Positions 108-14,633 of a DNA stretch of 15,682 bases are shown piece by piece. The notes under the pieces were generated by a model that saw only the letters and a program-made list of their open reading frames with translations, was not told where the DNA came from and made no database searches. Position numbers and translations under genes: made by a program. The stretch comes from Gemmatales bacterium (GTDB lineage: Bacteria; Planctomycetota; Planctomycetia; Gemmatales; Gemmataceae). The stretch spans positions 1 through 15,682 of the forward strand of contig JBBQPM010000165.1 of NCBI GenBank assembly GCA_038217425.1, in the 5' to 3' direction. Numbering within the stretch: position 1 is the first letter of the stretch; each line of letters opens with the position of its first letter.

Positions 108-362
108 ATGACGCATGTGGAACGTGTCGAAGAATACATCATCAAGCTCATTCATCGCGAGCCGTTCTTTCCCTTCGTGATGGATATGGCAGACGGTTCG
201 ACGCTCGAGATTCCTCACGGAAGATTGGCTATCGCGGGCGGCGGAGCGGTATTCCTTAGCCCCGACGACGGCTTTGTGGATTTTCAGTTCAAGAATGTGC
301 GAAGGATCGCTCCGATCGTCCCAGTCCCCTTCGTGCCGATCGATTTCGGAGTTTCCAGATGA
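108..362 (+). CDS. small hypothetical protein (84 aa), translationally coupled to the downstream gene
   Basis: ATG at 108 follows GGAGG (97-101) at 6-nt spacing. Its TGA stop (360-362) overlaps the ATG at 359 of the next gene (ATGA junction). Composition is balanced, unlike the Arg-rich competing frame 26..259. I recognise no family. Confidence 0.55.
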   Translation: MTHVERVEEYIIKLIHREPFFPFVMDMADGSTLEIPHGRLAIAGGGAVFLSPDDGFVDFQFKNVRRIAPIVPVPFVPIDFGVSR

Positions 363-2878
363 CGACGTCCCGCGCGACTTGCTTTGGCGTTTGCGTTCTA
401 ACGCTTGTCGGGGCCGTGCGCGGAGACGCTCAGGACGGCAACGTGCCGCCTGGATTCCAGGAGCACATCCGCCCCTTCCTCGCCGCCCACTGCGTGAGCT
501 GTCACGGCGCCAAGAAACCCAAGGGCGATCTCCGCCTCGACAACCTCCCCGCCGACTTCGGCGACAAGAAGACTGCGGAGATCTGGGCCAACGTCTACGC
601 CCGATTGCGCGACGGCGAAATGCCCCCCAGGAAACAGCCGCAACCCAAGGCCGACGACGCCAAGAAAATCCTCAACTGGATCGCGGAGCAGACGAAGTCC
701 ACGACTCGGCCCTTGCTCAATCGCCGGCTCAATCGCTACGAGTTCGAGTACTCGCTGCGCGATTTGCTCGATCTCCCGGGGCTCGAAGTCAAGGAACTGC
801 TCCCGCGCGACGGCGAAAGCGAAGGCTTCGACACGGTCGGCGACGGTCTGGATATTTCCTACGTGCAGATGGCGCGTTTTCTGGAGGCGGCCGACCTGGC
901 GCTCGATCAGGCGGCGGCGACCGGGCTGGCGCCGATTCGGCCCGACACGCGCAAGATCCGTTTTTGGCCGCAGGACGCCGGCGATTGGGTCAATCGCATG
1001 GGGAGCGGTTCCACCATTCCGCTCGGCGATTCAGGCGCCCACCCGGTGCTCGATCGCGAGAAGGGCGTCGTCGCGCTCAAGGCCGCGGAGCTACGCAAGC
1101 TGCCGCGCTTCAAGGCCGTCGCCACGTTCTTTCACTCCGACTCGTCCGCCCAGCATCGCTTCTCGGGCGACGTCCGCATCCCTGTGGCCGGGCTCTACAA
1201 ACTCACGATTTCCGCCTACACGTTCGACTGGAACAAGGGCCAGGTCGAACCCGCGAAACTCGCCCGGCCCTACTCCATCAGCACCGACACGCGCGTGCTC
1301 GGCTACTTCGACGCGCCCCCCAACGAAGCGGGCCTCAGCACCGTGACGGTCTGGCTGGAGCCGACCGACAGCATCCACTTCAACGCCGTCAATCTGCGGC
1401 ACGGCCATGGCCTGGCCAAGGGGGCGATGAGTTACGCGGGGCCCGCCATTGCCGTCGAATGGGTCGAAGCCGAGGGACCGATCCTCAAGACCTGGCCCAC
1501 GCTCGCGCGCACCCGGCTCTTCGGCGATCTCCCCCTCGCCGAATGGCAGGCGAAGTCCAAGCTGCACAAGCCGTCCCGGCCCAAGGGAATCACGCACTAT
1601 TTTACCCCGACCTCGACCGACCCCATGGTCGACGCCGAACGCTTGATTAAGGAATTCACTTACCGCGCCTGCCGTCGGCCGCTCACCAAGGAACGCGTCG
1701 AGCCGTTCCTCAAACTCGTGAAGGCCCGGCTCGATCAGCAATCGTCCTTCGAGGACGCCATGCGCACTGCGTACAAGGCCGTGCTCGTCTCGCCCCACTT
1801 CCTCTTCCTGCGCAGCGAGCCGGGCAAGATCGATCACTTCGCGGTGGGGAGCCGACTTTCGTATTTCCTGTGGAGTTCGCTCCCCGACGACGACCTGCTC
1901 AACCGTACCAACACCAGGCAAATCCTTCAGCCGGCGATGATGAAGACGCAGACCGATCGGCTCCTGGACGATCCCAAGTTCGAACGCTTCCTCGACAGTT
2001 TCCTGGGCCAATGGCTCAAGCTCCGCGAGATCGGCAGCAATCAGCCCGATCGCCAACTCTATCCCGAGAGCGAACTCGAGTCGGACATCAGCCATTATCT
2101 TTTCGACTCGATGGCCAACGAAACCCGGCAATTCTTCGCGAACATGATCAAGAAGGATCTGAGCGTCACGCATCTCGTCGACTCGGATTTCGCGTTCGTC
2201 AACGAACCGCTGGCGAAGCTCTACGGTCTCAAGGACGTGTACGGGTCGGCGTTGCGCGAAGTGCCGCTCCCCGCGAACGGCGAACGCGGCGGCATCGTGA
2301 CCCAGGCGAGCGTGCTGAAGGTCTCCGCGAACGGCACGACGACCTCGCCGGTCGTGCGCGGCGTGTTCGTGACGAGCCGGCTGCTGGGCCGACCGATCCC
2401 GCCGCCGCCTCCGAACATCACCGGCATCGACCCCGACGTTCGCGGCGCCACCACCATTCGCGAGCAGCTCGCCAAGCATCGCGACAACGCGTCGTGCTTC
2501 GCGTGCCACGCCAAGATGGACCCGCCTGGCTTCGCGCTGGAGAGCTTCGACGTGCTGGGCCGATTCCGCGAACGCTATCGATTTCTGGACAACGGCCGAA
2601 TGAATCCCAAGGGCCCGCTTGTGGATTCCAGCGGCGAAACCGAGGATGGGCAGAAGTATCAGAGCATCGCCGAGTTCCGCAAGATCGTGCTCGCCGACCC
2701 GGCGCCCCTCGCGCGCAATCTCGTCACCAAGCTGATGGTCTACGCGATCGGCGCTCCGCTCACCCCGGCCGATCGGCTCGAGGTCGACGCCATCGTCGAA
2801 CGCCTGCGCGCCAAGAATTTCGGCGTCCGTTCGATGATTCACGAGGTGGTGCAGAGCAAGGCGTTCCGTCAGGAATGA
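359..2878 (+). CDS. secreted planctomycete-type haem-binding multidomain protein (PSCyt + DUF1587/DUF1595/DUF1592/DUF1588/DUF1585 architecture)
   Basis: 839 aa. The N-terminus looks like a signal peptide (MTTSRATCFGVCVLTLVGAVRGDA). CxxCH motifs are CVSCH at nt 491-505 and CFACH at nt 2495-2509. Family-typical strings include LNRYEFEYSLRDLL, YFLWSS.PDDDLL, FL.QWL.L, TSPV.RG.F and C.ACH...DP.GFALE.FD..G..R. Domain names come from recollection of the Pfam families first defined in Rhodopirellula. Confidence 0.9.
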   Translation: MTTSRATCFGVCVLTLVGAVRGDAQDGNVPPGFQEHIRPFLAAHCVSCHGAKKPKGDLRLDNLPADFGDKKTAEIWANVYARLRDGEMPPRKQPQPKADDAKKILNWIAEQTKSTTRPLLNRRLNRYEFEYSLRDLLDLPGLEVKELLPRDGESEGFDTVGDGLDISYVQMARFLEAADLALDQAAATGLAPIRPDTRKIRFWPQDAGDWVNRMGSGSTIPLGDSGAHPVLDREKGVVALKAAELRKLPRFKAVATFFHSDSSAQHRFSGDVRIPVAGLYKLTISAYTFDWNKGQVEPAKLARPYSISTDTRVLGYFDAPPNEAGLSTVTVWLEPTDSIHFNAVNLRHGHGLAKGAMSYAGPAIAVEWVEAEGPILKTWPTLARTRLFGDLPLAEWQAKSKLHKPSRPKGITHYFTPTSTDPMVDAERLIKEFTYRACRRPLTKERVEPFLKLVKARLDQQSSFEDAMRTAYKAVLVSPHFLFLRSEPGKIDHFAVGSRLSYFLWSSLPDDDLLNRTNTRQILQPAMMKTQTDRLLDDPKFERFLDSFLGQWLKLREIGSNQPDRQLYPESELESDISHYLFDSMANETRQFFANMIKKDLSVTHLVDSDFAFVNEPLAKLYGLKDVYGSALREVPLPANGERGGIVTQASVLKVSANGTTTSPVVRGVFVTSRLLGRPIPPPPPNITGIDPDVRGATTIREQLAKHRDNASCFACHAKMDPPGFALESFDVLGRFRERYRFLDNGRMNPKGPLVDSSGETEDGQKYQSIAEFRKIVLADPAPLARNLVTKLMVYAIGAPLTPADRLEVDAIVERLRAKNFGVRSMIHEVVQSKAFRQE

Positions 2879-2946: not shown

Positions 2947-4392
2947 ATGCAGATGACGTACGACGCGGACGTGATCGTGGCAGGCAGCGGCGCCGGGGGC
3001 GCGACCTTGGCGTACGCATGCGCCCGTGCCGGCAAGAGCGTGCTGCTCCTGGAACGGGGCGACCGCTATCCCCCGCCCGAATCGACCGCCGACGAGCAGA
3101 CGATGCTCATCGACAAGAAGCCGTACGACGATCGCCCTATCGACGTCAACGGCACGGCGCGTCGGCTGTACATGGGAGGCGTACTGGGGGGTGGCACCGC
3201 GCTCTTCGGCGCCGCCCTGATGCGGGCCCACCCCGACGACTTTCATCCCGGCAAACACTACGGCGACCGCCTGCCTCGCCACCTCTGGGATTGGCCCCTC
3301 ACCTACGAAGATCTTCGGGACGACTACGCCGACGCCGAACGTCTCTTCGCCGTCTCCGGCAGCGCCGCCTACGCTGGCGCCCTGCTTCCGCTTCATCCGC
3401 TGAACCAGCGTTTGATGTCGGCGAATCGCGAAGAGGGTCTTCAGCCGTTTCGCCTCCCCCTGGCGATCGACGCGAGCAAGTGCCTGGAGTGCCGAGCCTG
3501 CCCGGGGTTCGTGTGTCCGACCGGCGCCCGACGTTCGTCGGCGCAGCTTGTGGACGGGCCCAATCTGCCGGGCCTGCGCGTCCTCACCGGCATCGACGTC
3601 GAGCGGCTCGACCTTGCGGACGGCTTCCACGTCATCGAACGCGCCACGAGCCGGCGCACCGTATATCGTGCGCGCCGCTACGTGCTCGCCGCCGGCGCCA
3701 TCGGCTCGCCGCTACTGCTCTTGCGGTCGGGTCTGGAGCATCCGCAGCTCGGTCGCAACTACATGATGCATCTGTCGCCGATCGTCGTCGGGATTTTCGC
3801 CAGGCGCCTGGAGACTGACGCGGGATTCCTCAAGCAGGTCGGCTTCACCGATTACTATTTCGGCACCGGGACATATCCGCACAAGCTCGGCTTGGTGCAA
3901 TCGCTGCCGCTGCCGGGGCCGTTGATGCTCGCCAAGGCGCTCCCCTGGATGCCCAGCGCGGTGCGGGAGTTTCTGCGTCGGCGCATGTTGCCTCTCGTGG
4001 GGATCGTGGAAGATTTGCCGAATCCCGAGAATCGCGTGTCGTGGGGTGCGGACGGTAAGCCGGCGCTGCGGCATCGCTTCAGCCCGTACGATCTCGAGCG
4101 AGGCAAGCAACTCGCGGGGTTGACGGCCCAGATACTCAAACGCGCCGGCGCCTGGACGTGTGCGACGAGCAGCTTCGCCTCCAGCGAGCACGTCGCCCAT
4201 CAATGCGGCACGCTTCGCTTCGGCTCCGATCCGAAGCACGCCGTCCTGGACCGCGACTGCCGGCTGCATCAGCATCCGCACGTCTTCGCGGTCGACGGCA
4301 GCTTCCTGCCGACGTCGCTCGGCGTCGGGCCGGCGCTCACGATCATTGCCAACGCCCTGCGCGTCGCCCGCATTGTTGCGAGCGAAGTTTGA
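2947..4392 (+). CDS. GMC-family FAD-dependent oxidoreductase
   Basis: The N-terminal Rossmann motif DVIVAGSGAGGATLA...LLLERG lies right after ATG 2947. The track ORF starts at TTG 2911, and I prefer 2947 because of where the GxGxxG falls. The C-terminus carries a GMC signature (HQCGTLRFG..P...VLD...R.H....VFAVDGSFLPTS.GV.PALTI.A.A.R.A). A Cys cluster CLECRACPGFVCP sits at nt 3481-3516. Confidence 0.85.
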   Translation: MQMTYDADVIVAGSGAGGATLAYACARAGKSVLLLERGDRYPPPESTADEQTMLIDKKPYDDRPIDVNGTARRLYMGGVLGGGTALFGAALMRAHPDDFHPGKHYGDRLPRHLWDWPLTYEDLRDDYADAERLFAVSGSAAYAGALLPLHPLNQRLMSANREEGLQPFRLPLAIDASKCLECRACPGFVCPTGARRSSAQLVDGPNLPGLRVLTGIDVERLDLADGFHVIERATSRRTVYRARRYVLAAGAIGSPLLLLRSGLEHPQLGRNYMMHLSPIVVGIFARRLETDAGFLKQVGFTDYYFGTGTYPHKLGLVQSLPLPGPLMLAKALPWMPSAVREFLRRRMLPLVGIVEDLPNPENRVSWGADGKPALRHRFSPYDLERGKQLAGLTAQILKRAGAWTCATSSFASSEHVAHQCGTLRFGSDPKHAVLDRDCRLHQHPHVFAVDGSFLPTSLGVGPALTIIANALRVARIVASEV

Positions 4393-4405
4393 ATCCGGAG
4401 TCCGC

Positions 4406-5332
4406 ATGAGATTGCCCTTTCCGAAAGTTCGCCGAGAGCAGTTCCGCCAGGCCCGCCAGGTTCACGGCGGCTTCTGGAATTTCCTCGTCGCCATCCTCGG
4501 CGTCAAGCTCGCGCGGCTGCACATCCCGACCGGGAAGCTACGGACCTCGCTGTACCGCAAGATCTTTAACAAGAAATACCCTCCTGGCATCAACGAGGCC
4601 GAAACGGAACGGCCTCTCTCGGCGTATCCCTCGCTCAACGCCCTGTTCACGCGCGGCATCAAACCCGAGTGCCGGCCGATCGCGACCGGCACGCCGCAGT
4701 TTCTCTCGCCCTGCGACGGGACCGTTCAAGATCTCGGCCGACTCGACCGCGACAAGCTCCTCACGCTCAAGAGCATCGAATACACGCTCCCGTCGCTGCT
4801 CCCGGAGGTCGACACTCGGCCGTTCGAGAACGGGCACTACGCGATCGTCTTCTTGTCGCCGATCGATTGTCATCGCGTCTTCAGCCCGCAGGACGGCCGA
4901 CTCGAAGAGGTGATCCACATCCCCGGGTATCGGCTGCCGGTCCATCCCCCCTGTCAGCGTGCGGAGTTTCCGGTGTATTCGCTGAACGAGCGCATGATCT
5001 TGCGATTGTCGACGCCGCTGGGGCCTTGCCTGGTGGTGATGATCGCGGGCTGGGGCGTCGGGAACATCACGTTGCCCGGGGCGGCGGACTTCCGCCCGCG
5101 CCGTCGGGCGCTGTCCAAGAAGACCTGGTCGAAGCCGCTGGAGGTCCGCCGCGGCGACTGGATCGCGACGTTCGAACTCGGTTCCACGGCGGTGCTGATC
5201 ACGCCCCCCGGCGTCCACGTGCAAACGCTCGTCACCCCCAACCAGAAGGTCCAGTATGGCCAGCCTCTCTTTACTTACGCCGACCAGGGCGGAACCGATC
5301 GAGCAGCGCGTGCTGTTCCTCGATCGACTTGA
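4406..5332 (+). CDS. phosphatidylserine decarboxylase-like pyruvoyl-dependent decarboxylase proenzyme
   Basis: 308 aa from ATG 4406, with GGAG at 4397-4400 and only 13 nt after the GMC stop. PSD-family motifs are SPCDG, FLSPIDCHRVFSP, IPG, NER and the self-cleavage site FELGST (Ser codon 5183-5185). The upstream part of track ORF 4160..5332 is Arg/Ser-rich, overlaps the GMC gene, and I discount it. Confidence 0.85.
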   Translation: MRLPFPKVRREQFRQARQVHGGFWNFLVAILGVKLARLHIPTGKLRTSLYRKIFNKKYPPGINEAETERPLSAYPSLNALFTRGIKPECRPIATGTPQFLSPCDGTVQDLGRLDRDKLLTLKSIEYTLPSLLPEVDTRPFENGHYAIVFLSPIDCHRVFSPQDGRLEEVIHIPGYRLPVHPPCQRAEFPVYSLNERMILRLSTPLGPCLVVMIAGWGVGNITLPGAADFRPRRRALSKKTWSKPLEVRRGDWIATFELGSTAVLITPPGVHVQTLVTPNQKVQYGQPLFTYADQGGTDRAARAVPRST

Positions 5333-5345
5333 CCCGGCAGCGCCA

Positions 5346-6803
5346 ATGCGAGCCCGGTTCGTGGCGCTGGTCAGTTCCTTCTCCATTCACCTGGGCGATA
5401 CTGCCGCCGCCGAGGCGGAGCGGGTTGCGCGGGAGCGTCTGCGAACAACGGCCGACCGCGTCGTGGCGATTCGCGCGGGGAACTCCGAGACCGGGCTGCG
5501 CCGTTACGGATTCGCGTATCCGCTCGTGCCGGGCTATCTGCGCAGCTGCTTCGTCTCGGACGCCGAGCTGTTCGCGGCCATCGACAAGATTCGGCAGGCG
5601 CCGACAGCGCGGAAGTGCGTCGCCGTGCTCGGCGCCAATCGCCCCTGGCGCGACGCGCTTCGCGAACATCGGGCGCGTGGCATCGTGTCGGCGTGCCTCA
5701 CCGGCGTCTGCTTCGTGCTTTCGCTGCTGCTCTTGGGCCATCTCGCCGCCCTGGTGCTCCGCCTGCTCGCGCGCTGGCGGCCTGCCTTGCGGCGCTGGAA
5801 CGTCGATACCCTGACCCCCGGCTCCTTCGACGAATTGCTCACCCTGTGCAACCCGTACAACTTCCAGCACGTCAAGGTCGTCGGCTACAACAACGGCGTC
5901 GTCCACTTCGGGCATCGCTATCCCGGCAAGACCGTCGTCTCCACCGTCCGCTGCAATCGCGTCGTCCGCGCCGGCGTCGACGTCCTCAAGGCCGACTGCG
6001 GCGCCACGATTCGCAAGGCGACCGACTTCCTCGCCGCCGACGACCGCGAGCTCTTCGTCGTCCCAAATTACTCGTACGTCAGCCTGGGTACGGCGTTCTT
6101 CGTTCCCATTCATGGCTCCGCCTCGGATGCGTCGACCGTCGCCGAGACGATCGTCCGCGTGCTGCTCTACGATCCCGCCGACGACCGCTTCATTCTCGCT
6201 TCGAGCGATGAGCCGGCCTTCCGCGATCGGGTGTACGACCTCGCGAGCAACGTGCTCGTTCTGCGACTTTGGCTCCGCGTCAAGCCGAAGGCCCGCTACT
6301 TCCTGCAACAAGAGGACGCCCTGAATCCCGGCAGCGCCGAATTGCTGAGTGCGCTGCGCGACGTGCGGGCGACCAACGTCGAGATCCGCAAGGCCAGCGC
6401 CGCCTCGGCGACGGTGCGGATCGCGCGCTACTATCATGCGGCGGGTACCGGGACTTTGGAGATGCCGCGCGATGTGCTGGGACGGTTGTGGGATCGTCTC
6501 GAGGAGAACGCGATCACGTCGTACTTGATGCATCTGCTCACGCGGCGGCTCGCCTGGCATGTCGAGCTGTTTTTCACGGCCGAGGAGTTCGCGCTCTTTT
6601 GGCAGACGCACACGTCGGCGCCGCTCAAGAAGATCCAGCTTCGCTACATTCGCCGGGACGGCTGGCAGCATTCGCCGTTCCGCGATCATGACTGCATCTC
6701 GGCGGATCTGTTCCTGTTTCGCTGGCAGCGCGCGAAGTTCGAGGCGTACTTGAAGCAGACGTTCGGCGTCGTCCGTTCGAATCCGGGCAAGCACAGCAAC
6801 TAG
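5346..6803 (+). CDS. membrane-anchored FAD-binding PCMH-type oxidoreductase (VAO / sugar-1,4-lactone oxidase / DprE1-like)
   Basis: ATG 5346 lies 13 nt after the PSD-like stop. The alternative start at 5256 would overlap that gene by 77 nt. A hydrophobic helix (GIVSACLTGVCFVLSLLLLGHLAALVLRLLA, about nt 5679-5771) precedes a segment matching the FAD_binding_4 pattern (P.SF.EL......VKVVGYNNG....; ADCGATIRKATDFL; VSLGTAFFVPIHGS; LVLRLWLRVKP). The C-terminal ..NPGKH resembles the HWGK ending of ALO-type oxidases. The family call rests on motif recollection only. Confidence 0.6.
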   Translation: MRARFVALVSSFSIHLGDTAAAEAERVARERLRTTADRVVAIRAGNSETGLRRYGFAYPLVPGYLRSCFVSDAELFAAIDKIRQAPTARKCVAVLGANRPWRDALREHRARGIVSACLTGVCFVLSLLLLGHLAALVLRLLARWRPALRRWNVDTLTPGSFDELLTLCNPYNFQHVKVVGYNNGVVHFGHRYPGKTVVSTVRCNRVVRAGVDVLKADCGATIRKATDFLAADDRELFVVPNYSYVSLGTAFFVPIHGSASDASTVAETIVRVLLYDPADDRFILASSDEPAFRDRVYDLASNVLVLRLWLRVKPKARYFLQQEDALNPGSAELLSALRDVRATNVEIRKASAASATVRIARYYHAAGTGTLEMPRDVLGRLWDRLEENAITSYLMHLLTRRLAWHVELFFTAEEFALFWQTHTSAPLKKIQLRYIRRDGWQHSPFRDHDCISADLFLFRWQRAKFEAYLKQTFGVVRSNPGKHSN

Positions 6804-6810
6804 GAGAGCC

Positions 6811-8862
6811 GTGATCATGGATGCCGGTCGACGTCTGGAAGAAACCTACGAGCAGATGCTGCGCGAGAAGCTGCCCAACCTGTTTCGGCTCTACCTGAAT
6901 CCGTACGTCGTCGGGACGTGCCTGTGCCTGGAACGCATGATTCACATTTCCTGGCAGACGTCGGAGCCGTACCAGTCGTTCCTGGCGAACAGCTTCGACG
7001 AGGCGCTCAGCGGGGCGATCAAGCTGGCACGTTACGCCGCCAGCGTGACCGGCAAGCCGAGCCAGGGACTGGTGATCGACCGCGAGAACCGACTGGAATC
7101 GTTCGCGTCGTCCGGGGACGTGGTGTTTCTGCCGGGACTCACGATCGTCCGCAGCGCGGCATCGGCGGATGCGTCGTTCGGCTTCGTCGTCGAGGTCGGC
7201 TCCGAACCCGTCGCGACGTCGGCGCTGCGCGTCGTCTGCACCGATCGTGCGGCACTCGTCCATCGGCGGACGCAGCCGTCGGCTTCTCCAGATATCGTCG
7301 TGTTCGACGAATCGTTCGTGTGCCGCGACGTTCCGTTCGGCGCCTTCGCGGCCCGCAAGAGTCTTTACGATCACTGGAATCGGCCCGGGAAATCGACCTT
7401 TCACTCGACCACGTTTCAGCCCAACACCGTCTCGACGCTGCACTTCATGAGCTGCCTCGAGCGCGACGACCCGGAGTGTTACGCCCAGATCGCCGCCGAT
7501 CTTCGGCGTCTCGAGGACGATCCAGCGCTTCGGCTAAAACTCTTACGGCGACTCTACAGCCCGTCCCTCGCCAACGCCATCGCGGCGACGGGATGCGACA
7601 CGCCCGATGTCCGCGCCGAAGGGCACTACGTGTTCGTCGACGGCCGCAAGATCTTCGACGGCGTGGGCGGAGTCGCCTGCAGCGTGCGCGGACACAACCC
7701 GCCGACGTATGCCGAGGAAATCGCCGATCTCGCCGACGTCGATTGTGCCGGGGAACTAAAGGCGAGGCTGCACGCGTCGACCGGATTGCCGAACCTGCTC
7801 CCCGCGGTCAGCGGCGCCAGCGCGGTCGAGAACGCGCTCAAGCTCGTCCTGGTCGCGCAGTCCCCGCGCAAACACGTTCTCGCGCTCAAGTCGGGCTTCG
7901 GCGGCAAGACCTTGCTGGCGCTCGCGGGCACCTGGAATTCCTCGTACAAACAACATCTCGACCCGCTCTACGCCGAGGTGCTCTACGTCGATCCGTTCGC
8001 CGACGACGCCGTCATGCAGATCGAGGCGATTCTGCGGACCACGCCCGTCGCGGTCGTGCACATGGAGTTGATCCAGGGCGTGGGGGGCGTGCGCCGCGTG
8101 CCGGAAGCGATCGTGCGCCATCTCGATGCGGCCCGGCCGAGCCATGGATTTTTACTGCTCATCGACGAAGTTCAAACGGGCATGTTCCGCACCGGGCCGT
8201 TCACGCTTTCCCGCGCCATGGGAGTGACGCCCGATCTGCTCGCCATCGGCAAGGCCGTCTCCGACATGATGATTCCGTTCGCCGTCACGCTCTACTCGCA
8301 GCAACTTCAGCAAAAGCTGACGCAGCTCGGCTCGACGTTGCCGGAATGCATTCGCGATCGGTATTCGTATCCGATCGCATATCAGACGGCGCTGAACGCC
8401 CTTCGCTTCGCGGAGAAAACGGGATTGGCCGAGCGCGTGGCAGAATCGGGCGCGGCGTTCGCCCGACGGCTCGTGGAGGAACTGGCGACGTGCAAAGCCG
8501 TCCGCGCCGTCCGAGTCTTCGGGCTTTTGATCGGCATCGAACTCGACGCGTCGCGCTGGCCGCAGCGCTGGTTTGCGAAACGCCTCTTCTGGTTCTATCT
8601 GTCCGCGATGTTGCAGCATCCGCGCTTCCCGGTCCTCGTCGGTTTCTGCCAGTATGAACCGAACGTCCTCAAGATCACGCCGCCGCTCACCACCGATGCG
8701 GACGAGATTCGGCAGATCTGCGCGACGATCGGCGACGTCTTACGGCGACCGTTCTATCGTCTCTTGATTTCCGCCGTCGGCGGAATGTGGAAGTCGTTCG
8801 GTCTAGGGAGGAAGAAACATGCAGTCCCTGAAAGCCCAGCCCCTCAGCCTGTTTCGCATTGA
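6811..8862 (+). CDS. tandem class-III (omega-amine type) aminotransferase: degenerate N-terminal pseudo-domain plus complete PLP domain
   Basis: 683 aa. Start is GTG 6811 or ATG 6817, with AGGAG at 6802-6806, 7 nt after the upstream stop. The C-terminal domain carries SGASAVENALKL, ELIQGVGGV, IDEVQTGMFRTG and PDLLAIGKAVSD (PLP Lys codon AAG 8251-8253). Residues about 20-245 repeat the same fold signature in shortened form (LYLNPYV, SFDEALSGAIKLAR, FDESF, PFGAFAARKSLYD, FHSTTFQPN) but lack the Lys segment. Confidence 0.85.
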   Translation: MIMDAGRRLEETYEQMLREKLPNLFRLYLNPYVVGTCLCLERMIHISWQTSEPYQSFLANSFDEALSGAIKLARYAASVTGKPSQGLVIDRENRLESFASSGDVVFLPGLTIVRSAASADASFGFVVEVGSEPVATSALRVVCTDRAALVHRRTQPSASPDIVVFDESFVCRDVPFGAFAARKSLYDHWNRPGKSTFHSTTFQPNTVSTLHFMSCLERDDPECYAQIAADLRRLEDDPALRLKLLRRLYSPSLANAIAATGCDTPDVRAEGHYVFVDGRKIFDGVGGVACSVRGHNPPTYAEEIADLADVDCAGELKARLHASTGLPNLLPAVSGASAVENALKLVLVAQSPRKHVLALKSGFGGKTLLALAGTWNSSYKQHLDPLYAEVLYVDPFADDAVMQIEAILRTTPVAVVHMELIQGVGGVRRVPEAIVRHLDAARPSHGFLLLIDEVQTGMFRTGPFTLSRAMGVTPDLLAIGKAVSDMMIPFAVTLYSQQLQQKLTQLGSTLPECIRDRYSYPIAYQTALNALRFAEKTGLAERVAESGAAFARRLVEELATCKAVRAVRVFGLLIGIELDASRWPQRWFAKRLFWFYLSAMLQHPRFPVLVGFCQYEPNVLKITPPLTTDADEIRQICATIGDVLRRPFYRLLISAVGGMWKSFGLGRKKHAVPESPAPQPVSH

Positions 8863-9370
8863 GTTCGACGAACTCTACGCCCGCCATCTGTGCCGGCATT
8901 CGCAGCGGGGCATCAACGCCATTCACCTCGCCGCGCTCTTCGGCATCTGGTACGCGGTCTACGGGTTGCTCCACTGGGCCGTCGGCCTCGACGGGGTGCT
9001 CGCAGTCCCGGCGCTTTCGTATCTCTTGATCCTGGCGCCGAATGTGCCGCTCCGCGTCCTCGTGGCGATGGCGTTTTTTCTCGGCGTCCTCATCGCGGCG
9101 GTGCTGCTGCTCCCGGCGCCGTGGTGGGCGTACCTCCTCATGATCCCGGCGCTTGCCAAAATCCAGTCGTGGAGCCATCGCTTCTACACGGCCACGCGCG
9201 ACATGACGGAGTTCAACCGGAAGTACGTCAAGGGGCGGGTGCTCTTCGTGGTGCTCTTGATATACGAGGTGCCGATCGTGCTCAACCTTCTTTTGTGCCC
9301 GCGTGAACTGCCCGCGGTTTTCGGCGCCGAGCGGTCGAGCGAAACATCGAGACCAGCATGTTCGTCGTGA
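8819..9370 (+). CDS. DUF962 / Mpo1-like four-helix membrane protein
   Basis: ATG 8819 follows GGGAGG (8806-8811). The protein is 183 aa with about four hydrophobic helices. The N-terminal Y..H...H....N.IH pattern and a late Q.WSH.F segment resemble the yeast Mpo1/YGL010w family as I recall it. It overlaps the aminotransferase 3-prime end by 44 nt and the convergent GT 3-prime end by 89 nt. Confidence 0.5.
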   Translation: MQSLKAQPLSLFRIEFDELYARHLCRHSQRGINAIHLAALFGIWYAVYGLLHWAVGLDGVLAVPALSYLLILAPNVPLRVLVAMAFFLGVLIAAVLLLPAPWWAYLLMIPALAKIQSWSHRFYTATRDMTEFNRKYVKGRVLFVVLLIYEVPIVLNLLLCPRELPAVFGAERSSETSRPACSS

Positions 9371-10529
9371 AGCGGGCGATGCTTTCGCCCCACGCCGGCC
9401 TTGGCGCCGAGTGCTCGATCGCCTGCAGGTACGCCTCGCGCACCCGGCCGATCGAGTGTTCCCAGTTCCGCGCTTCGATGGTCTGCCGGGCGGCGGCGCC
9501 GATGCGGGCACGGGTTTCGGGCTCCTTCAGGATGGTGCGCGTCCAGCGGACCGCGTCGTCCGTGTCTTGCGGTCGGTAGAGGTAGCCGGACTCGGCATGG
9601 GTTAGCAGATTCGGAATGCCGCCGGCCTGCGGCGCGACCACGGCACAGCCGGTCGCCATCGCCTCGAGCACCACGTTGCCCATCGTCTCTGTTTCCGACG
9701 CGTAGAGAAACGCATCGGCCGAGGCGTACGCGGCGGCCAACTCTTCCCCCTTCAGGTATCCGAAGAAGTTGGTGTCCGTCCCCTCGAAGCGGCGCTCCAG
9801 GTTCGCACGGGTCGGGCCGTCCCCCACGATCGCCAAGGTACATTCGGGAAACGCGCGCATCACGTTCGCCAGGAAGCCGACGTTCTTCTCGGGCGCCAGA
9901 CGCGAGACCGTGAGCAAGAGCGGACGCTCGGGTCGCCCGTGCGTCAGGCGATTCCGCATCGCGGCGCTTTGGCGCTTCGGATGAAAGAGATCGCTGTCGA
10001 CGGCCGGGGGCCAAAGCTCGACGCGTTCGAAGCCCCGGCTCTTCAGATCTTCCTGCATGATGGGCGAGACGGTGAGGTTTACGTCGGCGCGATTGTGGTA
10101 GTTGCGCATCAGCCACCAGATCAGCGCCGAGAGGGGCCGCAGCGCCTGGTAGCCCTTCACGAACTCGCCGTACAGCGTGTGGAAGGAGAAGACGCTCGGC
10201 ACGTTCATCCCGGACTGACGCAGGAGATCGTTGACGCGAAAGCCGAACGCGAAGGGGTTGACGTAGTGCAGCACGTCGGGACGAAACGCGCGGAGCTTCG
10301 CCGCCAGGCTGCGGTCGGGCAGGCCGATGCGATATTCGGGGTAGAGCGGAAACGAAAAGCTCGGCACCGGCAGCACGGGTATGTCGCAGCGCTCGCATCC
10401 GGGCGCCTGGGGACAGACGACGAGGAGTTCATCGCCGTGCTGGGGGAGTTGGCGAATGAGATGGAGCGTGCGATTGACGACGCCGTCGATCTTGGGCAGG
10501 AAGACTTCGGAGATGATGGCGACTTTCAT
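9282..10529 (-). CDS. GT4-family lipid glycosyltransferase, SQD2/SqdX-like (diacylglycerol glycosyltransferase type)
   Basis: 415 aa from ATG at 10529, preceded by AGGAG. It aligns by eye along its length with plant SQD2: I.SE.FLPK.DGV..R, SF.FPLYPE, LW...VDS..F.P, GRPE.PLL..V.RL..EK, IVGDGP....LE..F, F.G.L.G.EL..AYAS.D.F...SETET.G.VVLEAM..G..VV....GGIP.L. The EX7E motif is at nt 9663-9689. Confidence 0.9.
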   Translation of the reverse strand: MKVAIISEVFLPKIDGVVNRTLHLIRQLPQHGDELLVVCPQAPGCERCDIPVLPVPSFSFPLYPEYRIGLPDRSLAAKLRAFRPDVLHYVNPFAFGFRVNDLLRQSGMNVPSVFSFHTLYGEFVKGYQALRPLSALIWWLMRNYHNRADVNLTVSPIMQEDLKSRGFERVELWPPAVDSDLFHPKRQSAAMRNRLTHGRPERPLLLTVSRLAPEKNVGFLANVMRAFPECTLAIVGDGPTRANLERRFEGTDTNFFGYLKGEELAAAYASADAFLYASETETMGNVVLEAMATGCAVVAPQAGGIPNLLTHAESGYLYRPQDTDDAVRWTRTILKEPETRARIGAAARQTIEARNWEHSIGRVREAYLQAIEHSAPRPAWGESIARFTTNMLVSMFRSTARRRKPRAVHAGTKEG

Positions 10530-10541
10530 GGCGCTCCTGGG

Positions 10542-11381
10542 TCAGGGGGCGATTTTCTGGGCGAGATGGATTTCGATGCTGTGATGATCTTCCAGAGGGA
10601 ACAAGAAGCGATTGAGTGCGAAGCGCGTGAAGGCGCCGGCTTGGTGCAGGCCGATCGCTTCGATGAAGGGGGTGAGCCAGCCGCCGTAGTAGGCGAACTC
10701 GAGGAATTCGTCGACGTTGCGGAAGCGCAGTTTCGGCTCGAAGGTTTCGGATTGGCGGATCGCGAAGTTGTTTTGTTTGAGGGTGTCGACGACTTCCTGC
10801 CGATTCGCGGGGCTCATGACCATGCTCTCGACGTCGAGTTTGGGCCCGCGGAAAAGGAACTTGAGGAGTTTGCTGTCGGCCTTGGCCTGGAGTTTGGGGT
10901 AGGAACGTTTGGTCGCGCCGAGGTAGGACCAGTAGCCGCCGACGGCGAGTCGGCTCCAGACTTTGGGCGCCAGGATGCTCAAGGGGACGAAGCCGCTGAT
11001 AAAATGGGTGCAGATGAGATCGAACGATTGATCGCGGAAATGGGCGTCGAGATTGGCGGCGGTGTCGACGGTGCCGACGAGATCGGGAAACTTGCGGTAG
11101 GCGCAGTCGATCATCTTGGGCGAGAGGTCGAGGCCGAAGGGTTGGATCTGATCGTCGGCGAGGGCTTTGAGGCGGGTGAGGAACATGCCGGTGCCCATGC
11201 CGACGTCGTAGACGGAGAGCCGGGTCGAGCCGTCGCCGAGGAGTCGCTGTTTGCGGATTTGGGCGACGGCGCGGTCAAGGGTGTCGCCGTTGACGGATTG
11301 GGGATCGAGGTCGTAGCGGGAGGCGATGACTTCGTCGTACTGACGCTGAATGGCGCTGGTCGTCATGGGGAAGGTTTCCAT
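10542..11381 (-). CDS. class I SAM-dependent methyltransferase with uncharacterised C-terminal extension
   Basis: Motif I is VYDVGMGTG, post-I is GLDLSPKMI, motif II is FDLICTHF and motif III is LAVGGYW. The stop at 10542-10544 is 12 nt upstream of the GT start, so the two are probably co-transcribed. The start is uncertain: the track uses TTG 11411, and ATG candidates are at 11381 and 11366. Confidence 0.8.
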   Translation of the reverse strand: METFPMTTSAIQRQYDEVIASRYDLDPQSVNGDTLDRAVAQIRKQRLLGDGSTRLSVYDVGMGTGMFLTRLKALADDQIQPFGLDLSPKMIDCAYRKFPDLVGTVDTAANLDAHFRDQSFDLICTHFISGFVPLSILAPKVWSRLAVGGYWSYLGATKRSYPKLQAKADSKLLKFLFRGPKLDVESMVMSPANRQEVVDTLKQNNFAIRQSETFEPKLRFRNVDEFLEFAYYGGWLTPFIEAIGLHQAGAFTRFALNRFLFPLEDHHSIEIHLAQKIAP

Positions 11382-11509: not shown

Positions 11510-11602
11510 TACCGAGTTCCAGTTGAGCATGCTCCGCCATCGCATCCAGGCCCTTCTTCCGCGTATGCAATGCAGCTCAAATACCGAAGCCTACCTGGGG
11601 AG

Positions 11603-12598
11603 ATGCGGATGCGAATGGCAACTTGTTTGATGGCGTGGATGCTGGCGAGCGTCGGTTGGAGTGCGGAGGGGAAAGCAGTCTACCCGCCGCTCCCGGAAAG
11701 CTTCTCCAGTTTCGGCGCCGCCGTCTCGGACGGATTCGTCTACGTTTACGGCGGGCACGTGGCCAAGACCCACGTCTATTCCACCGAGGCGGTCACGGGG
11801 AAGTTTCGCAGGTTGCGCCTGGCCGATCCCGCCAAGGGCTGGGAAGAACTCCCCGCCGGGCCCCCCCTTCAGGGACTGGCGCTGGTGGCGCACGCCGGCA
11901 AGATCTATCGCATCGGCGGCATGCATCCGCGCAACAAGCCCGACGAAAAAGCCGACAACCACTCCGTCGCCAGTTGCGACGTTTTCGATCCCAAGACAAA
12001 GCAATGGCAGGCGCTGCCCGACCTCCCCGCGGCCCGGTCGTCGCACGATGCCGTCGTGGTCGGCGATCAGCTCCTCGTCGTCGGCGGCTGGAATCTGAAA
12101 GGTCGCGGCAACGGCTACCACTACGACGAGCACGCCCTGGTTCTCGATCTCTCCCAGAAGAAACTGCACTGGGACACGATCCCACAACCCTTCAAACGAA
12201 GGGCGCTGCAGACCGCCGTGTTCGACGCCAAGGTCTACGTCTTCGGCGGCATGGACGACGAGAACACCATCGAACTCGCCGTCGACGTCCTCGATCCCAA
12301 GACCAAGAAATGGTCGTCGGCTCCCGCGATCCCGGGCGCACGCCGAAATGGCTTTTCCCCCGCGGCTTGCGTCAGCGACGGCAAGCTATACCTCAGCCCG
12401 CCCAACGGGATCGTGTATCGGCTCACCGAAAAGAAGGACCGCTGGGAGGAAGTCGGCGCCCTCCAAAAGCCCCGCCTCGTGCACCGCATGGTGCCCGCCG
12501 GGGAGAACCGGCTGTTGGTCCTGGGAGGCGCCTCCGGACCCGAAAACATCGCCGCCGTCGAGGCGATCGAACCCAAAGTCCAGCCCAAGAAAGATTGA
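11603..12598 (+). CDS. secreted Kelch-repeat beta-propeller protein (about six blades)
   Basis: The signal-peptide-like N-terminus MRMRMATCLMAWMLASVGWSA/EG starts at ATG 11603. An alternative ATG at 11570 gives 342 aa. Blade signatures recur: FVYVYGGH, KIYRIGGM, QLLVVGGW, KVYVFGGM, KLYLSPP and RLLVLGGA, with intervening W/DP.T..W motifs. Confidence 0.8.
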   Translation: MRMRMATCLMAWMLASVGWSAEGKAVYPPLPESFSSFGAAVSDGFVYVYGGHVAKTHVYSTEAVTGKFRRLRLADPAKGWEELPAGPPLQGLALVAHAGKIYRIGGMHPRNKPDEKADNHSVASCDVFDPKTKQWQALPDLPAARSSHDAVVVGDQLLVVGGWNLKGRGNGYHYDEHALVLDLSQKKLHWDTIPQPFKRRALQTAVFDAKVYVFGGMDDENTIELAVDVLDPKTKKWSSAPAIPGARRNGFSPAACVSDGKLYLSPPNGIVYRLTEKKDRWEEVGALQKPRLVHRMVPAGENRLLVLGGASGPENIAAVEAIEPKVQPKKD

Positions 12599-12612: not shown

Positions 12613-14088
12613 CTACGGATCTTGTTCTACGACCGGCGGCGGGGGAGCAGCCATGCGGCGGGACGGCTCGTTCCATAAGCGGAAGCCAATGTCTTCAGCC
12701 GGCGCAATTGCAGGCGCAACATACCACGCCGCTTTCCCCAACGGCTCGCGGACGATGGCGCCTTGGTCGTCGTTTTCATCGATGCCGATGGAATAGACGA
12801 CGATGCCCTCCGCCTCCTCGCGATACCGCAAGGGTTGCCCGTCCACGGGATCGACGGGCAACGCAGGGAGCAGCTTCTCGGCAACCAGCACCTCCAGCGT
12901 CTTCGGCCAGCGCTTGTGCTCGAGCCGATACCGTTCGCAGGCGAGCGCCACGAGCGTCGTTCGCAGCACTGCCTGACTGCGGAGTTCATAGGCATGAATC
13001 CTCACGCAAAACGAAAAGGAGGCCCCGTCGAGCGGATCGCGTGCTTTGCCGTCGGTATGATCATGAAGTTCCTGCAGCTTGGCCTTCTGCTGGTGCAGCG
13101 GCAGTTTCGCAATTTCGATCAGCCGATTCGTGAAGCGAAGATGGGCCGGGTAGTACTTCAGTACCAACTTCGGAAACTCCTCATGGATCCAATCTCCCAG
13201 CGTCATGTTGTCTCGGGCGGCGAACCATTTACGCGGCACGGGATGCTGGGTCACCTTGCCATTGCGAATATTCTCAAAGCAGTGGTGAAACCCCGCCCGC
13301 TCTCCTTTGAGCGTGCCGATCCAGTTGCTTTCTTCAATCTCGCGCGCCACCAACATTTGTAAGGTGAGCAGGCTCTCCTTGGACGGACTTCCCTGGGCGA
13401 GGATGCGCTCGGCCGTTTCTGCAAACTTGCGGTGATTGCCCATACGACTCAAATGGGAACCCAGAAAGCGATCGTCCCCGATCGTCCGTCCGATGTTCAG
13501 AATCGCCCGACAGTTGCCCAGCGCCTCAGCGCAGCGATTCTGCTGGGCCAAAAGATAGGCGTCATGAAGCAGCCATTCCGAGATCGAACGAGCCGCATCA
13601 TGAGCCGGCATCTGCGTCCAGATATAATCGGCACTGAACTCGATGGCAAAGCGGCCGTGCGGCATGTCCTTCAGCTTGCGAGCTTCGGCGATTGCCGCCG
13701 GCGCGCTGTAGAGTCGGCTCCGGATCAGGTCGATTTGCTGCAAGTTCATCCGCTGGGTCGGCTTCAACGCGGCGAAGATCTTGTCGTAATCCGCCGCCGT
13801 CGAGACGCACAACTTGGGCGCTTTGCTGTGCGCCCGGAGGATCTGCAAAGCGGCGTTGTCCGCATCGAGAATCGGCGGGCGATCGGCTTCGAGTTCGGCG
13901 AGCCGCCAGCGCGGTTCCAGGGCGTCGGTTTCCGCCTCGGCGCAACTCCAGTCGTGGTCGAGGGCGATTCCGAGTAGGTCCAACACGCACAGAATCACAC
14001 ATCCCGTGACGACGACGCAGATGAGTCCGACCAGCCACCAGCGCCGCCTGGGCCTCGACGACGTGACGGGAGTCGATTGCGTGTTCAT
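12613..14088 (-). CDS. hypothetical single-pass membrane-anchored protein, largely helical
   Basis: I prefer the ATG at 14088 (MNTQSTPVTSSRPRRRWWLVGLICVVVTGCVILCVL), which gives a positive-inside N-terminus plus one TM helix. The track ORF extends to 14298 through lower-GC3, hairpin-rich sequence that I take as non-coding, and ATG 14151 is another option. The C-terminal string YRLEHKRWPKTLEVLV...LPALPVDPVDGQPLRY......VVYSIGIDENDDQG is a motif I recall from many uncharacterised PVC proteins and from pseudopilin C-termini. Confidence 0.65.
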   Translation of the reverse strand: MNTQSTPVTSSRPRRRWWLVGLICVVVTGCVILCVLDLLGIALDHDWSCAEAETDALEPRWRLAELEADRPPILDADNAALQILRAHSKAPKLCVSTAADYDKIFAALKPTQRMNLQQIDLIRSRLYSAPAAIAEARKLKDMPHGRFAIEFSADYIWTQMPAHDAARSISEWLLHDAYLLAQQNRCAEALGNCRAILNIGRTIGDDRFLGSHLSRMGNHRKFAETAERILAQGSPSKESLLTLQMLVAREIEESNWIGTLKGERAGFHHCFENIRNGKVTQHPVPRKWFAARDNMTLGDWIHEEFPKLVLKYYPAHLRFTNRLIEIAKLPLHQQKAKLQELHDHTDGKARDPLDGASFSFCVRIHAYELRSQAVLRTTLVALACERYRLEHKRWPKTLEVLVAEKLLPALPVDPVDGQPLRYREEAEGIVVYSIGIDENDDQGAIVREPLGKAAWYVAPAIAPAEDIGFRLWNEPSRRMAAPPPPVVEQDP

Positions 14089-14213
14089 GGAACCAGCATA
14101 CCGTGCCGCCAGGTCAATTCCAAGCGTCTCATTTTCGAAGGTCCACGGCATAACCTTCGCGCGAGGACACTGGTACATAAACGTCACGATCTTGCCCCGG
14201 AAGTATAGTTTCC

Positions 14214-14306
14214 TCTGCCCCTGCCGGGGCAGTCGAATTTCGTCGTGCATCCACGGGTTGCGCTGCGCTCCACCCGTGGCTACCTTCCGCCGCCCCATCC
14301 GGGGCG
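14214..14306. repeat. cluster of three perfect hairpins (REP-like intergenic element)
   Basis: Hairpin 1 is CTGCCCC-TGCC-GGGGCAG (14214-14231). Hairpin 2 is CCACGGGT-N13-ACCCGTGG (14250-14278). Hairpin 3 is CGCCCC-ATCC-GGGGCG (14291-14306). Hairpins 1 and 3 share a GCCCC-N4-GGGGC core. The cluster lies in the divergent intergenic region between 14088 and 14634. Confidence 0.4.
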
Positions 14307-14633
14307 AAAGTCACTTTTTCCAGCTCAGTCTGTAAGATCCCCGACGACGCCTGGTATTCCCTTCTGAGCGGAACGGGATCGACCCGAATGATCCGCCGGC
14401 CCATCCGAGGCGTACCATGATCCTGACCGCTTTTTCGCTCACGGAGGTTCGGATTAGAACGGATTGCGCTTATCTTGCAACCGTTCCGGCGAGCCGGGAC
14501 GCGTCAGCGCCCGGAGCACAGGTGGATTGCAAGCGCACTCGCCTCCCGGCTCTGACGCGACTGGGTTCGCCGAATGCGGTGCAATCGTGAGCCGCTTTGA
14601 ATGACTGTTTTACCTTCGACAAAGGAGAATGCC

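Follow-up and report, generated by a model that had tools for sequence, protein, structure and literature searches.

A conserved seven-gene cluster in a Gemmatales bacterium as a candidate pathway to membrane glycolipids with a cationic, N-methylated amino head group

Contig JBBQPM010000165.1 of a Gemmatales bacterium (Planctomycetota; assembly GCA_038217425.1) raises the question of what seven closely packed genes of known enzyme families might make together. The window, meaning the whole stretch of 15,682 nucleotides that was analysed, has a GC content of 63.6%. Five genes on its plus strand encode a GMC oxidoreductase, a protein of the phosphatidylserine decarboxylase (PSD) type, a flavoprotein of the VAO fold, a class-III aminotransferase and a small membrane protein. 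They converge on two minus-strand genes for a family 4 glycosyltransferase (GT4) and an S-adenosylmethionine (SAM)-dependent methyltransferase. The window may carry a full set of genes for a conserved and so far uncharacterised pathway, in which an N-methylated, cationic amino head group would be built onto a membrane glycolipid on the cytoplasmic side of the membrane; we assign this reading a probability of about 0.4.

The first evidence is conservation. A search with the flavoprotein gathered 33 loci from species-representative genomes and 38 metagenome contigs. All 33 genomes are metagenome-assembled genomes (MAGs), with no cultured isolate among them. The hosts belong to the Gemmataceae, Isosphaeraceae, Tepidisphaerales and Planctomycetaceae, together with three cyanobacterial MAGs and one Verrucomicrobiota MAG. 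In all, the genes co-occur on more than 60 contigs besides that of the window, and the metagenomes that carry them come from soil, peat and marine sites. The nearest related loci, on a Singulisphaera MAG contig (L003) and a metagenome contig (L041), share 61-79% protein identity with the window; together with the domains of the gene upstream of the cluster, they indicate a planctomycete source, probably of the Isosphaeraceae or Gemmataceae. In public data the flavoprotein family comprises at least 625 clusters at 90% identity, and no relative was found across 72,556 plasmids. Gene counts were taken over 29 related loci with wide flanks (Table 1). Synteny is strong across related genomes, which disposes of the concern, raised in the first-pass annotation of this DNA, that the genes might not be co-conserved. 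Chance adjacency is ruled out by the same synteny.

Gene order is shuffled in at least four ways. The GT4 gene adjoins the methyltransferase gene wherever both are seen, and this pair moves as a unit, lying downstream in convergent orientation (the arrangement of the window), downstream in the same direction, or upstream in divergent orientation. In a fourth order (L080), the small membrane protein gene is upstream on the opposite strand. Such proximity, surviving shuffling across phyla, is strong evidence of one function. The flavoprotein and aminotransferase genes are the most widely shared pair. The small membrane protein goes with PSD, and a few loci (for example L059) have PSD without it. 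The GMC gene is missing from the L002 locus and from the Mastigocoleus-type cyanobacterial loci. The loci on cyanobacterial MAGs (L010/L038, L018, L036 and L039) differ in GC content from the planctomycete loci (34-41% for those labelled cyanobacterial, 55-64% for planctomycetes), so the presence of the cluster in both phyla is not a binning artefact. All-against-all clustering of open reading frames (ORFs) from the first 35 loci gave no further conserved neighbour family. A literature search found no description of this gene combination. The first-pass view that no characterised pathway combines these genes thus holds for a cluster that is co-conserved and membrane-oriented.

Two observations concern individual loci. 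On a short metagenome fragment (L073, 1-1175), the flavoprotein gene converges on an opposite-strand pair of aminotransferase and small membrane protein genes, and the adjacency is kept. In MFD long-read MAGs (L009, L027-L030, L032, L034 and L035), the cluster genes appear as several shifted tblastn pieces, most likely from long-read frameshift error and not from pseudogenisation.

Table 1. Genes of the cluster in the window and their occurrence in the 29 related loci with wide flanks.
Gene	Position	Strand	Product (aa)	Loci with gene (of 29)	Remark
GMC oxidoreductase	2947-4392	+	481	27	
PSD-type decarboxylase	4406-5332	+	308	29	
VAO-fold flavoprotein	5256-6803	+	515	29	corrected start; public call from 5346
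Class-III aminotransferase	6811-8862	+		29	public call from ATG 6817
Small membrane protein	8819-9370	+	183	27	
GT4	9282-10529	-	415	19	
SAM methyltransferase	10542-11381	-	279	26	

All seven genes lie where the first-pass annotation had placed them, and its intergenic distances (gaps of 13, 13 and 7 nt, an overlap of 44 nt and a gap of 12 nt) are reproduced. Public gene calls contain six of the products in identical form and differ in the start of the seventh, the aminotransferase. Profile searches bear out the family calls for the GMC enzyme, the PSD-type enzyme, the class-III aminotransferase, the GT4 and the methyltransferase. Overlaps occur between the PSD and flavoprotein genes and between the aminotransferase and small membrane protein genes. 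The small membrane protein and GT4 genes overlap convergently at their 3' ends by 89 nt.

In the proposed pathway, the GT4, a homologue of Agt1, would glycosylate diacylglycerol (DAG), which in many relatives may be supplied by a neighbouring PlcP-like phosphoesterase. An iron-sulfur (Fe-S) GMC enzyme and a membrane-anchored enzyme of the VAO/ALO fold would oxidise the head group to an intermediate of the 2-oxo-acid type, and the small, His-rich membrane protein might assist as a dioxygenase or as an electron acceptor. The class-III aminotransferase would turn the intermediate into a serine-like, O-linked alpha-amino acid. The PSD-type pyruvoyl enzyme would strip the carboxylate to leave an ethanolamine-like amine, and the methyltransferase would N-methylate the resulting amine. 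The net logic would be that of phosphatidylserine (PS) to phosphatidylethanolamine (PE) to phosphatidylcholine (PC), carried out on a lipid on which the serine-type head group is itself assembled.

The lipid scaffold is suggested by the GT4 and by the neighbours of the cluster in other genomes. The GT4, a retaining glycosyltransferase with GT-B domains, matches Glyco_transf_4 (PF13439) and Glycos_transf_1 (PF00534) at about 1e-29 each, and its E-x7-E motif, ETETMGNVVLE, is conserved. It is 30% identical over 393 aa (E 4e-42) to Agt1 of Pseudomonas aeruginosa, a proven DAG glucosyltransferase (PMC8528852). In PlcP-Agt systems, PlcP provides DAG for phosphate-free glycolipids (PMC8528852, PMC4796936). 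A PlcP-like phosphoesterase, 29% identical to the PA3219-type PlcP of P. aeruginosa, adjoins the cluster at either end in 11 of the 29 loci. The Agt1-like GT4 and the PlcP-like neighbours therefore indicate DAG-based, phosphate-free glycolipid synthesis. In these two features the cluster resembles the PlcP-Agt renovation systems of P. aeruginosa (PA3219/PA3218), SAR11 and Phaeobacter. It differs from them in that the window has no PlcP-like gene, and in that those systems have no counterpart to the GMC enzyme, PSD, VAO-fold flavoprotein, aminotransferase, small membrane protein or methyltransferase of the cluster. The GT4 is the equivalog of no curated lipid glycosyltransferase. Its best NCBIfam match is GlcN_PG_synth (133 bits; cutoff 480), and it scores 80 bits against the MGlcDAG synthase model (cutoff 400). 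No SqdB-like gene is found among the conserved neighbours of the related loci. After the cluster, Trichodesmium-type loci carry genes for an MFS transporter and a HAD-IB phosphatase.

The methyltransferase is a class-I SAM-dependent enzyme by its Methyltransf_25/11 matches, and it is probably an N-methyltransferase. Searched against the PDB, the family profile finds mainly N-methyltransferases, including phosphoethanolamine N-methyltransferases (6e-10) and a bacterial PE N-methyltransferase (8ys9, 6e-7). The profile also matches the sugar N,N-dimethyltransferases TylM1 and DesVI (~2e-5) and CalS10.

The PSD-type enzyme, encoded as a pyruvoyl decarboxylase proenzyme, is a canonical member of its family with intact catalytic motifs. 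It matches PF02666 (1e-44, 153 bits; cutoff 22) and TIGR00163 (135.4 bits; cutoff 111.75), and its beta chain is related to Escherichia coli Psd (7cnw, 3e-26). The motifs PCDG, DCHR and LGST (as FELGST), the last of which is the site of self-cleavage, are at least 90% conserved among 50 orthologues. As for the Asp-His-Ser machinery, E. coli His144 is aligned, and the Asp90-containing and Ser254 (LGST) sites are matched by motif. Because the enzyme is canonical and catalytically intact, an alpha-amino-acid lipid intermediate of the serine type would be needed. Cyanobacteria are not known to have PS or PE. Since the cluster also occurs in that phylum, the pathway itself probably produces the amino acid.

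The same enzyme has lost two phosphate-binding side chains. Tyr137 and Ser166 are the residues that bind the phosphate of the substrate in E. coli Psd. The Tyr137 position is Tyr (85%) or Arg (15%) across the Psd family, and the Y137F/S166A double mutant has much reduced activity (PMC7952604). The window enzyme has Phe149 (4850-4852) in place of Tyr137 and Pro178 (4937-4939) in place of Ser166. Among the 50 orthologues, the first position is Phe in 42, Tyr in seven and Leu in one. The second is Leu in 36, His in seven, Pro in six and a gap in one, and His144 is kept. The product is probably without phosphate, because the orthologues have lost both phosphate-binding side chains of E. coli Psd. 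The ligand loss, taken with the Agt1-like GT4 and the PlcP-like genes nearby, favours a DAG glycolipid over PS as the scaffold. Tyr at the Tyr137 position is kept only in the cyanobacterial subclade whose loci are linked to polyketide synthase (PKS) and alpha-oxoamine synthase (AOS) genes.

These features set the cluster beside the familiar maturation of PS by Psd and PmtA. The two share a canonical PSD with its Asp-His-Ser/LGST machinery and a methyltransferase whose profile matches PE and phosphoethanolamine N-methyltransferases. Unlike that route, the cluster encodes no PS synthase, and its PSD is without the Tyr137 and Ser166 ligands. Its PSD gene also stands in an operon with two flavoenzymes and an aminotransferase and is found in cyanobacterial MAGs. 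A PssA-independent path into the same phospholipids can be drawn from phosphatidylglycerol (PG). The PG glycerol would be oxidised by the GMC and VAO-fold enzymes, via phosphatidyl-glycerate, to the hydroxypyruvate stage and transaminated to PS, which would go on to PE and towards PC; the substrate of the GT4 would be a head group of the PG type. All of the host phyla have PG. With known chemistry, this route gives the GMC enzyme, flavoprotein, aminotransferase, PSD and methyltransferase one role each, and it agrees with a PSD that passes the curated PSD model and with a methyltransferase profile that matches PmtA and PEAMT. The best NCBIfam match of the GT4, GlcN_PG_synth, is moreover a PG-head-group glycosyltransferase (PMC12713373), though at 133 bits against a cutoff of 480. 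The absence of both phosphate-binding side chains from the cluster PSDs speaks against the PG route, as do the PlcP-like and HAD phosphatase neighbours, which indicate DAG and phosphate-free chemistry. The small membrane protein and the GT4 would also not be needed. We regard a PG origin as improbable.

The PSD could also stand at the start of a pathway that runs in the opposite direction. PS would be decarboxylated to PE, the aminotransferase would remove the amine, and oxidation of the aldehyde by the flavoenzymes would give an acidic head group. In its favour, transamination can run in either direction, aldehyde hydrates can be substrates of flavin dehydrogenases, and the PSD is canonical. 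Such catabolism or remodelling would leave the N-methyltransferase-like enzyme, the GT4 and PlcP without a role. It would also leave unexplained both the loss of the phosphate ligands and the occurrence of the cluster in cyanobacteria, with their lack of PS and PE. It is the kind of explanation to which we give very little credence.

The oxidative half of the proposed glycolipid pathway begins with the GMC enzyme. Profile search places it by GMC_oxred_N (PF00732, 6e-18) and GMC_oxred_C (PF05199, 3e-17), and the flavin adenine dinucleotide (FAD) motif GxGxxG is present as GSGAGG at residues 14-19. Its best PDB relatives are the alpha subunit of FAD-glucose dehydrogenase (6e-20) and the large subunit of fructose dehydrogenase. 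Four cysteines, C179, C182, C185 and C190 (CxxCxxCxxxxC; 3481-3516), are invariant in 38 orthologues and form a probable Fe-S cluster site. The motif presumably sits where the 3Fe-4S centre of the FAD-glucose and fructose dehydrogenases does. The likeness to those membrane-bound dehydrogenase complexes (6a2u, 7w2j) is confined to the catalytic subunit. The cluster enzyme has the four-Cys CxxCxxCxxxxC motif, and neither a signal peptide nor a transmembrane (TM) segment is predicted for it. Genes for a cytochrome c or a small Tat-signal partner are not found among the other ORFs of the window, a survey that used no cytochrome c profile. Because the cytochrome c subunit, the small Tat-signal subunit and the signal peptide are all absent, the GMC enzyme probably works at the cytoplasmic face.

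The second oxidase is the VAO-fold flavoprotein. Its likeliest start is ATG 5256 and not 5346, because the N-terminus aligns with homologues only from there; the sequence MASLSLLTPTRAE fits the homologue consensus MASLxLxT. This start creates a 77-nt overlap with the PSD gene. Overlaps of 20-38 nt between the same two genes were called independently in L001, L036, L038, L080 and L081. The window protein is without an N-terminal domain of ~70-100 residues that most homologues (550-630 aa) have. It has no Pfam match, and FAD_binding_4 does not appear even at E <= 10. FAD_binding_4 is matched by four of ten diverse homologues (best 1.8e-8), and many more carry precomputed matches. The ALO C-terminal domain PF04030 gave no match in ten family members at E <= 10. 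The C-terminal RSNPGKHS only resembles the HWGK motif.

Structure comparison supports the fold. With Foldseek, the AlphaFold model (predicted local distance difference test, pLDDT, 66) matches L-galactonolactone dehydrogenase, alditol oxidase, D-2-hydroxyglutarate dehydrogenase and DprE1 in the PDB at 5e-11 to 1e-7 (8qnb 5e-11, 2vfu 3e-10, 6lpn 1e-8 and 4fdn 3e-8). There are 57 matches at E <= 1e-3, and all 50 among the matches listed are VAO-family flavoenzymes. The protein has one long, strongly hydrophobic segment, GVCFVLSLLLLGHLAALVL, with a central Gly-His, interpreted as a predicted monotopic membrane anchor. The earlier description of a TM-anchored VAO/ALO/DprE1-like flavoprotein is supported by the FAD_binding_4 matches of the homologues and by the model matches. 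Both flavin enzymes fall in groups that oxidise sugars, polyols or hydroxy acids.

The aminotransferase is a tandem protein, as had been proposed. Its C-terminal part (residues 268-644) matches Aminotran_3 (PF00202; 1.5e-44, 152.7 bits), with ArgD, PigE, LysJ and BioA as the nearest relatives. The DEVQTG motif and the GK catalytic lysine are conserved in 46 orthologues. For the N-domain (aa 1-267), a profile search of the PDB places class-III aminotransferases on top (2eh6 at 3.5e-5, BioA at 0.0024 and another at 0.069). In this domain, 'DES' is aligned to the 'AKG' lysine site, so the catalytic lysine is replaced. Direct hhalign comparison of the N-domain with the C-domain was not significant. 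The first copy can thus be described as a degenerate, lysine-less version of the class-III fold. As the sole amine-introducing enzyme in the cluster, the aminotransferase should make the alpha-amino acid from a 2-oxo acid.

The same oxidases and aminotransferase allow a simpler chemistry, in which the GT4 makes a hexosyl-DAG, a flavin enzyme oxidises it to a keto- or aldehydo-sugar, and amination and N-methylation follow, while PSD and the small membrane protein are accessory or unrelated. Much of the evidence agrees with this amino-sugar model. The GT4 is homologous to Agt1, and related loci have PlcP-like neighbours. Both oxidases are similar to sugar oxidases, the nearest aminotransferase relatives use aldehydes or ketones, and the methyltransferase profile matches TylM1, DesVI and CalS10. 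The sole Verrucomicrobiota locus (L031) has only the flavoprotein and the aminotransferase, together with distant GMC-like (30% identity) and methyltransferase-like (26%) genes, the identities at this locus being 26-39% overall; PSD and the small membrane protein are absent. The difficulty lies with PSD: all 29 loci have it, its gene overlaps that of the flavoprotein, and the enzyme is catalytically intact, yet it would be without a substrate. A PSD-type pyruvoyl decarboxylase needs an alpha-amino acid, and a pyranoside has none. The small membrane protein would be without a role as well. The GMC enzyme, finally, is nearer to the Fe-S glucose and fructose dehydrogenases than to the aminoglycoside 6'-oxidase LivQ (7dve), which is far more distant at 2.7e-7, and it does not accompany the aminotransferase invariably. 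We consider amino-sugar synthesis unlikely.

This bears on the first-pass annotation, which had likened the GMC enzyme and the aminotransferase to the C6 oxidase and aminotransferase of 2-deoxystreptamine aminoglycoside pathways and expected an amino analogue of sulfoquinovosyl-DAG. Like the NeoQ/LivQ and NeoB systems, the cluster has a GMC flavoenzyme and a class-III aminotransferase, and it possibly follows a logic of hydroxyl to carbonyl to amine. The two differ in other respects. The cluster GMC enzyme has the invariant four-Cys motif, it is the VAO-fold enzyme that always neighbours the aminotransferase, and the substrates are presumably lipid-bound, not soluble pseudo-oligosaccharides. 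Of the lipid head-group pathway proposed at that stage, the general part stands, supported by the synteny, the Agt1-like GT4, the PlcP neighbours and the N-methyltransferase profile. The specific amino-sugar chemistry of GMC enzyme and aminotransferase is one of several mechanisms and does not fit best.

The small membrane protein is polytopic, with conserved His residues and the motifs RHLCRHSQxGINxxH and QxWSH. It had been called Mpo1/DUF962-like. In favour of that call, 17 of 20 family members give sub-threshold matches to PF06127 (best E 0.0024). The gathering score is never reached (the window protein scores 9.2 bits against a threshold of 24). Compared by hhalign with an annotated P. aeruginosa Mpo1-like protein, the family aligns with P 0.0024 over the N-terminal motif. 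An exhaustive profile search gave a closed family of 108 clusters at 50% identity and reached no canonical DUF962 proteins. AlphaFold2 gives a confident model (pLDDT 86) with seven predicted helices in a bundle, for which Foldseek found no match in the PDB; a profile search of PDB sequences gave none either. A remote relationship to Mpo1/DUF962 is thus unproven. What the protein shares with yeast Mpo1/DUF962, an Fe2+-dependent 2-hydroxy fatty acid dioxygenase, is small size, a polytopic membrane topology, conserved His residues and the sub-threshold PF06127 match. What sets it apart is a score below gathering, a closed family and the lack of a structural match. In P. aeruginosa (L079, NZ_CP137508.1, 2192-5973), the characterised PlcP-Agt1 pair lies 1.6 kb from a gene for an 'Mpo1-like protein'. 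This neighbourhood may be fortuitous, or it may suggest a part for DUF962 proteins in glycolipid remodelling.

Several points weigh against the glycolipid pathway with its in situ serine-type head group. The model is built from family membership and synteny, with every step inferred. The GT4 gene is not near the cluster in 10 of the 29 loci. The small membrane protein is without an established function. Class-III aminotransferases, of which ArgD, PigE and BioA are nearest here, more typically aminate aldehydes or ketones than form alpha-amino acids from their specific substrate, and a 2-hydroxy or 2-oxo acid on a glycoside is hard to explain without ring cleavage. The absence of PSD and the small membrane protein from L031 indicates that the oxidation and amination half can stand alone. 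The PSD could act on ordinary PS in Planctomycetota. The loss of the PSD phosphate ligands is at most suggestive, since E. coli Y137F alone retains ~50% activity. The ranking of the flavoprotein inside the VAO superfamily depends on a mediocre model, at pLDDT 66.

A more novel reading names a particular product. The cluster could be a route to an acetal-type betaine lipid of the diacylglyceryl carboxyhydroxymethylcholine (DGCC) kind, or to its hydroxymethyl homologue. The GT4 would again form a glycosyl-DAG, and the Fe-S GMC enzyme would oxidise a ring hydroxyl to give a keto-glycoside. The Mpo1-like protein would cleave the adjacent C-C bond to DAG-O-CH(COOH)-O-CH2-CH(OH)-COOH, so that C1 would stay as a carboxylated acetal carbon and the distal part would become an O-linked glycerate. 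The VAO-fold enzyme would oxidise this to a 2-oxo acid, the aminotransferase would make O-linked serine, PSD would leave an ethanolamine ether, and the methyltransferase would produce a choline ether. This variant uses each conserved gene once and accounts for a canonical PSD without phosphate ligands. Nothing is known of DGCC synthesis, according to a 2023 paper (PMC10685587). For all its economy, so specific a product is a long shot.

The synthesis of another betaine lipid, diacylglyceryl trimethylhomoserine (DGTS), by BtaA and BtaB offers a further comparison. There, too, the product is a phosphate-free, N-methylated, amino-acid-derived DAG head group, as is possible for the cluster, and SAM-dependent N-methylations come last. 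The cluster, unlike that system, has no BtaA-like 3-amino-3-carboxypropyl transferase. Its amine would come by transamination, a decarboxylase is present, and there is far more oxidative chemistry.

Some cyanobacterial loci raise the question of whether the lipid anchor is the same everywhere. In the Mastigocoleus-type loci L018 and L059, the cassette stands in one co-directional array with a TE-ACP-AOS gene (BioF/SPT-like, 2.8e-105), an SDR gene and a second GT4 gene (L018, 4290-8861). A fatty-acid desaturase and a CMAS-type methyltransferase are encoded nearby. In L036 and L037, a FAAL-ACP-KS-AT polyketide synthase follows the cassette (L036, 8120-11986). This context suggests a sphingoid or polyketide lipid anchor in place of DAG in the PKS/AOS-linked subclade. 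It fits a wider explanation, in which PSD, flavoprotein, aminotransferase, methyltransferase and small membrane protein are a tailoring cassette for specialised, possibly secreted lipids, on a scaffold that changes with the lineage: glycosyl-DAG in Planctomycetota and a polyketide or sphingoid base in some cyanobacteria. That all 33 flavoprotein-carrying species representatives are MAGs also agrees with it. The PKS/AOS context, however, is limited to one cyanobacterial subclade with 83% identical flavoproteins and counts as a single lineage-level observation. Most loci are without PKS or nonribosomal peptide synthetase genes, and the PlcP-like genes are typical of bulk lipid remodelling instead. 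A general role in specialised lipids is accordingly doubtful and, in our estimate, quite unlikely.

L018 (677-14478) and L059 (1-13808) share 98.9% identity as far as the stop codon of the methyltransferase gene, where they part. Past the stop codon, one of them has the small membrane protein gene, and the other has a window-type GT4 gene with sulfate-assimilation genes. The divergence is either strain variation or an assembly chimera.

Four other pathways were considered and rejected. Aminopentanetetrol head-group synthesis requires a free reducing end of the sugar, which is absent from a GT4 glycoside. For HpnO-type hopanoid amination, hopanoid genes are found in none of the loci. In the case of sphingolipid synthesis, AOS is linked only in the one cyanobacterial subclade, and the AOS-like match in L008 is 27% identical and 2 kb away. 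Decarboxylation of a 4-keto-uronate in the manner of ArnA/ArnB does not need a pyruvoyl amino-acid decarboxylase.

Upstream of the cluster in the window, at 359-2878 (+), lies a gene for an 839-aa protein with PSCyt1, PSD2-5 and PSCyt3 (DUF1585/1587/1588/1592/1595) domains, typical of Planctomycetota; its adjacency to the cluster is not kept in other loci. The other flanking genes encode a Kelch-repeat/NanM-like beta-propeller protein (11570-12598, +), a 561-aa protein with one TM segment and no family match (12613-14298, -) and a FabG-like SDR (14601-15383, +), none of which shows synteny with the cluster elsewhere. Promoter and terminator scans of the window gave nothing beyond chance, and Rfam and tRNA scans gave no matches.

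Bacterial membrane-lipid head groups are still being discovered, and for several environmentally abundant phosphate-free lipids no biosynthetic route is known. Because the genomes that carry the cluster are MAGs, lipidomics of cultured strains would have missed its product. At 8.4 kb, the cluster is compact enough for direct heterologous expression. If the proposed pathway is correct, oxidation and transamination would construct a serine-type lipid head group in place, and a PSD would then process it. This would be a new logic for making ethanolamine- and choline-like cationic lipids without phosphate, and it would bear on the interpretation of intact polar lipid biomarkers and on microbial phosphorus economy.

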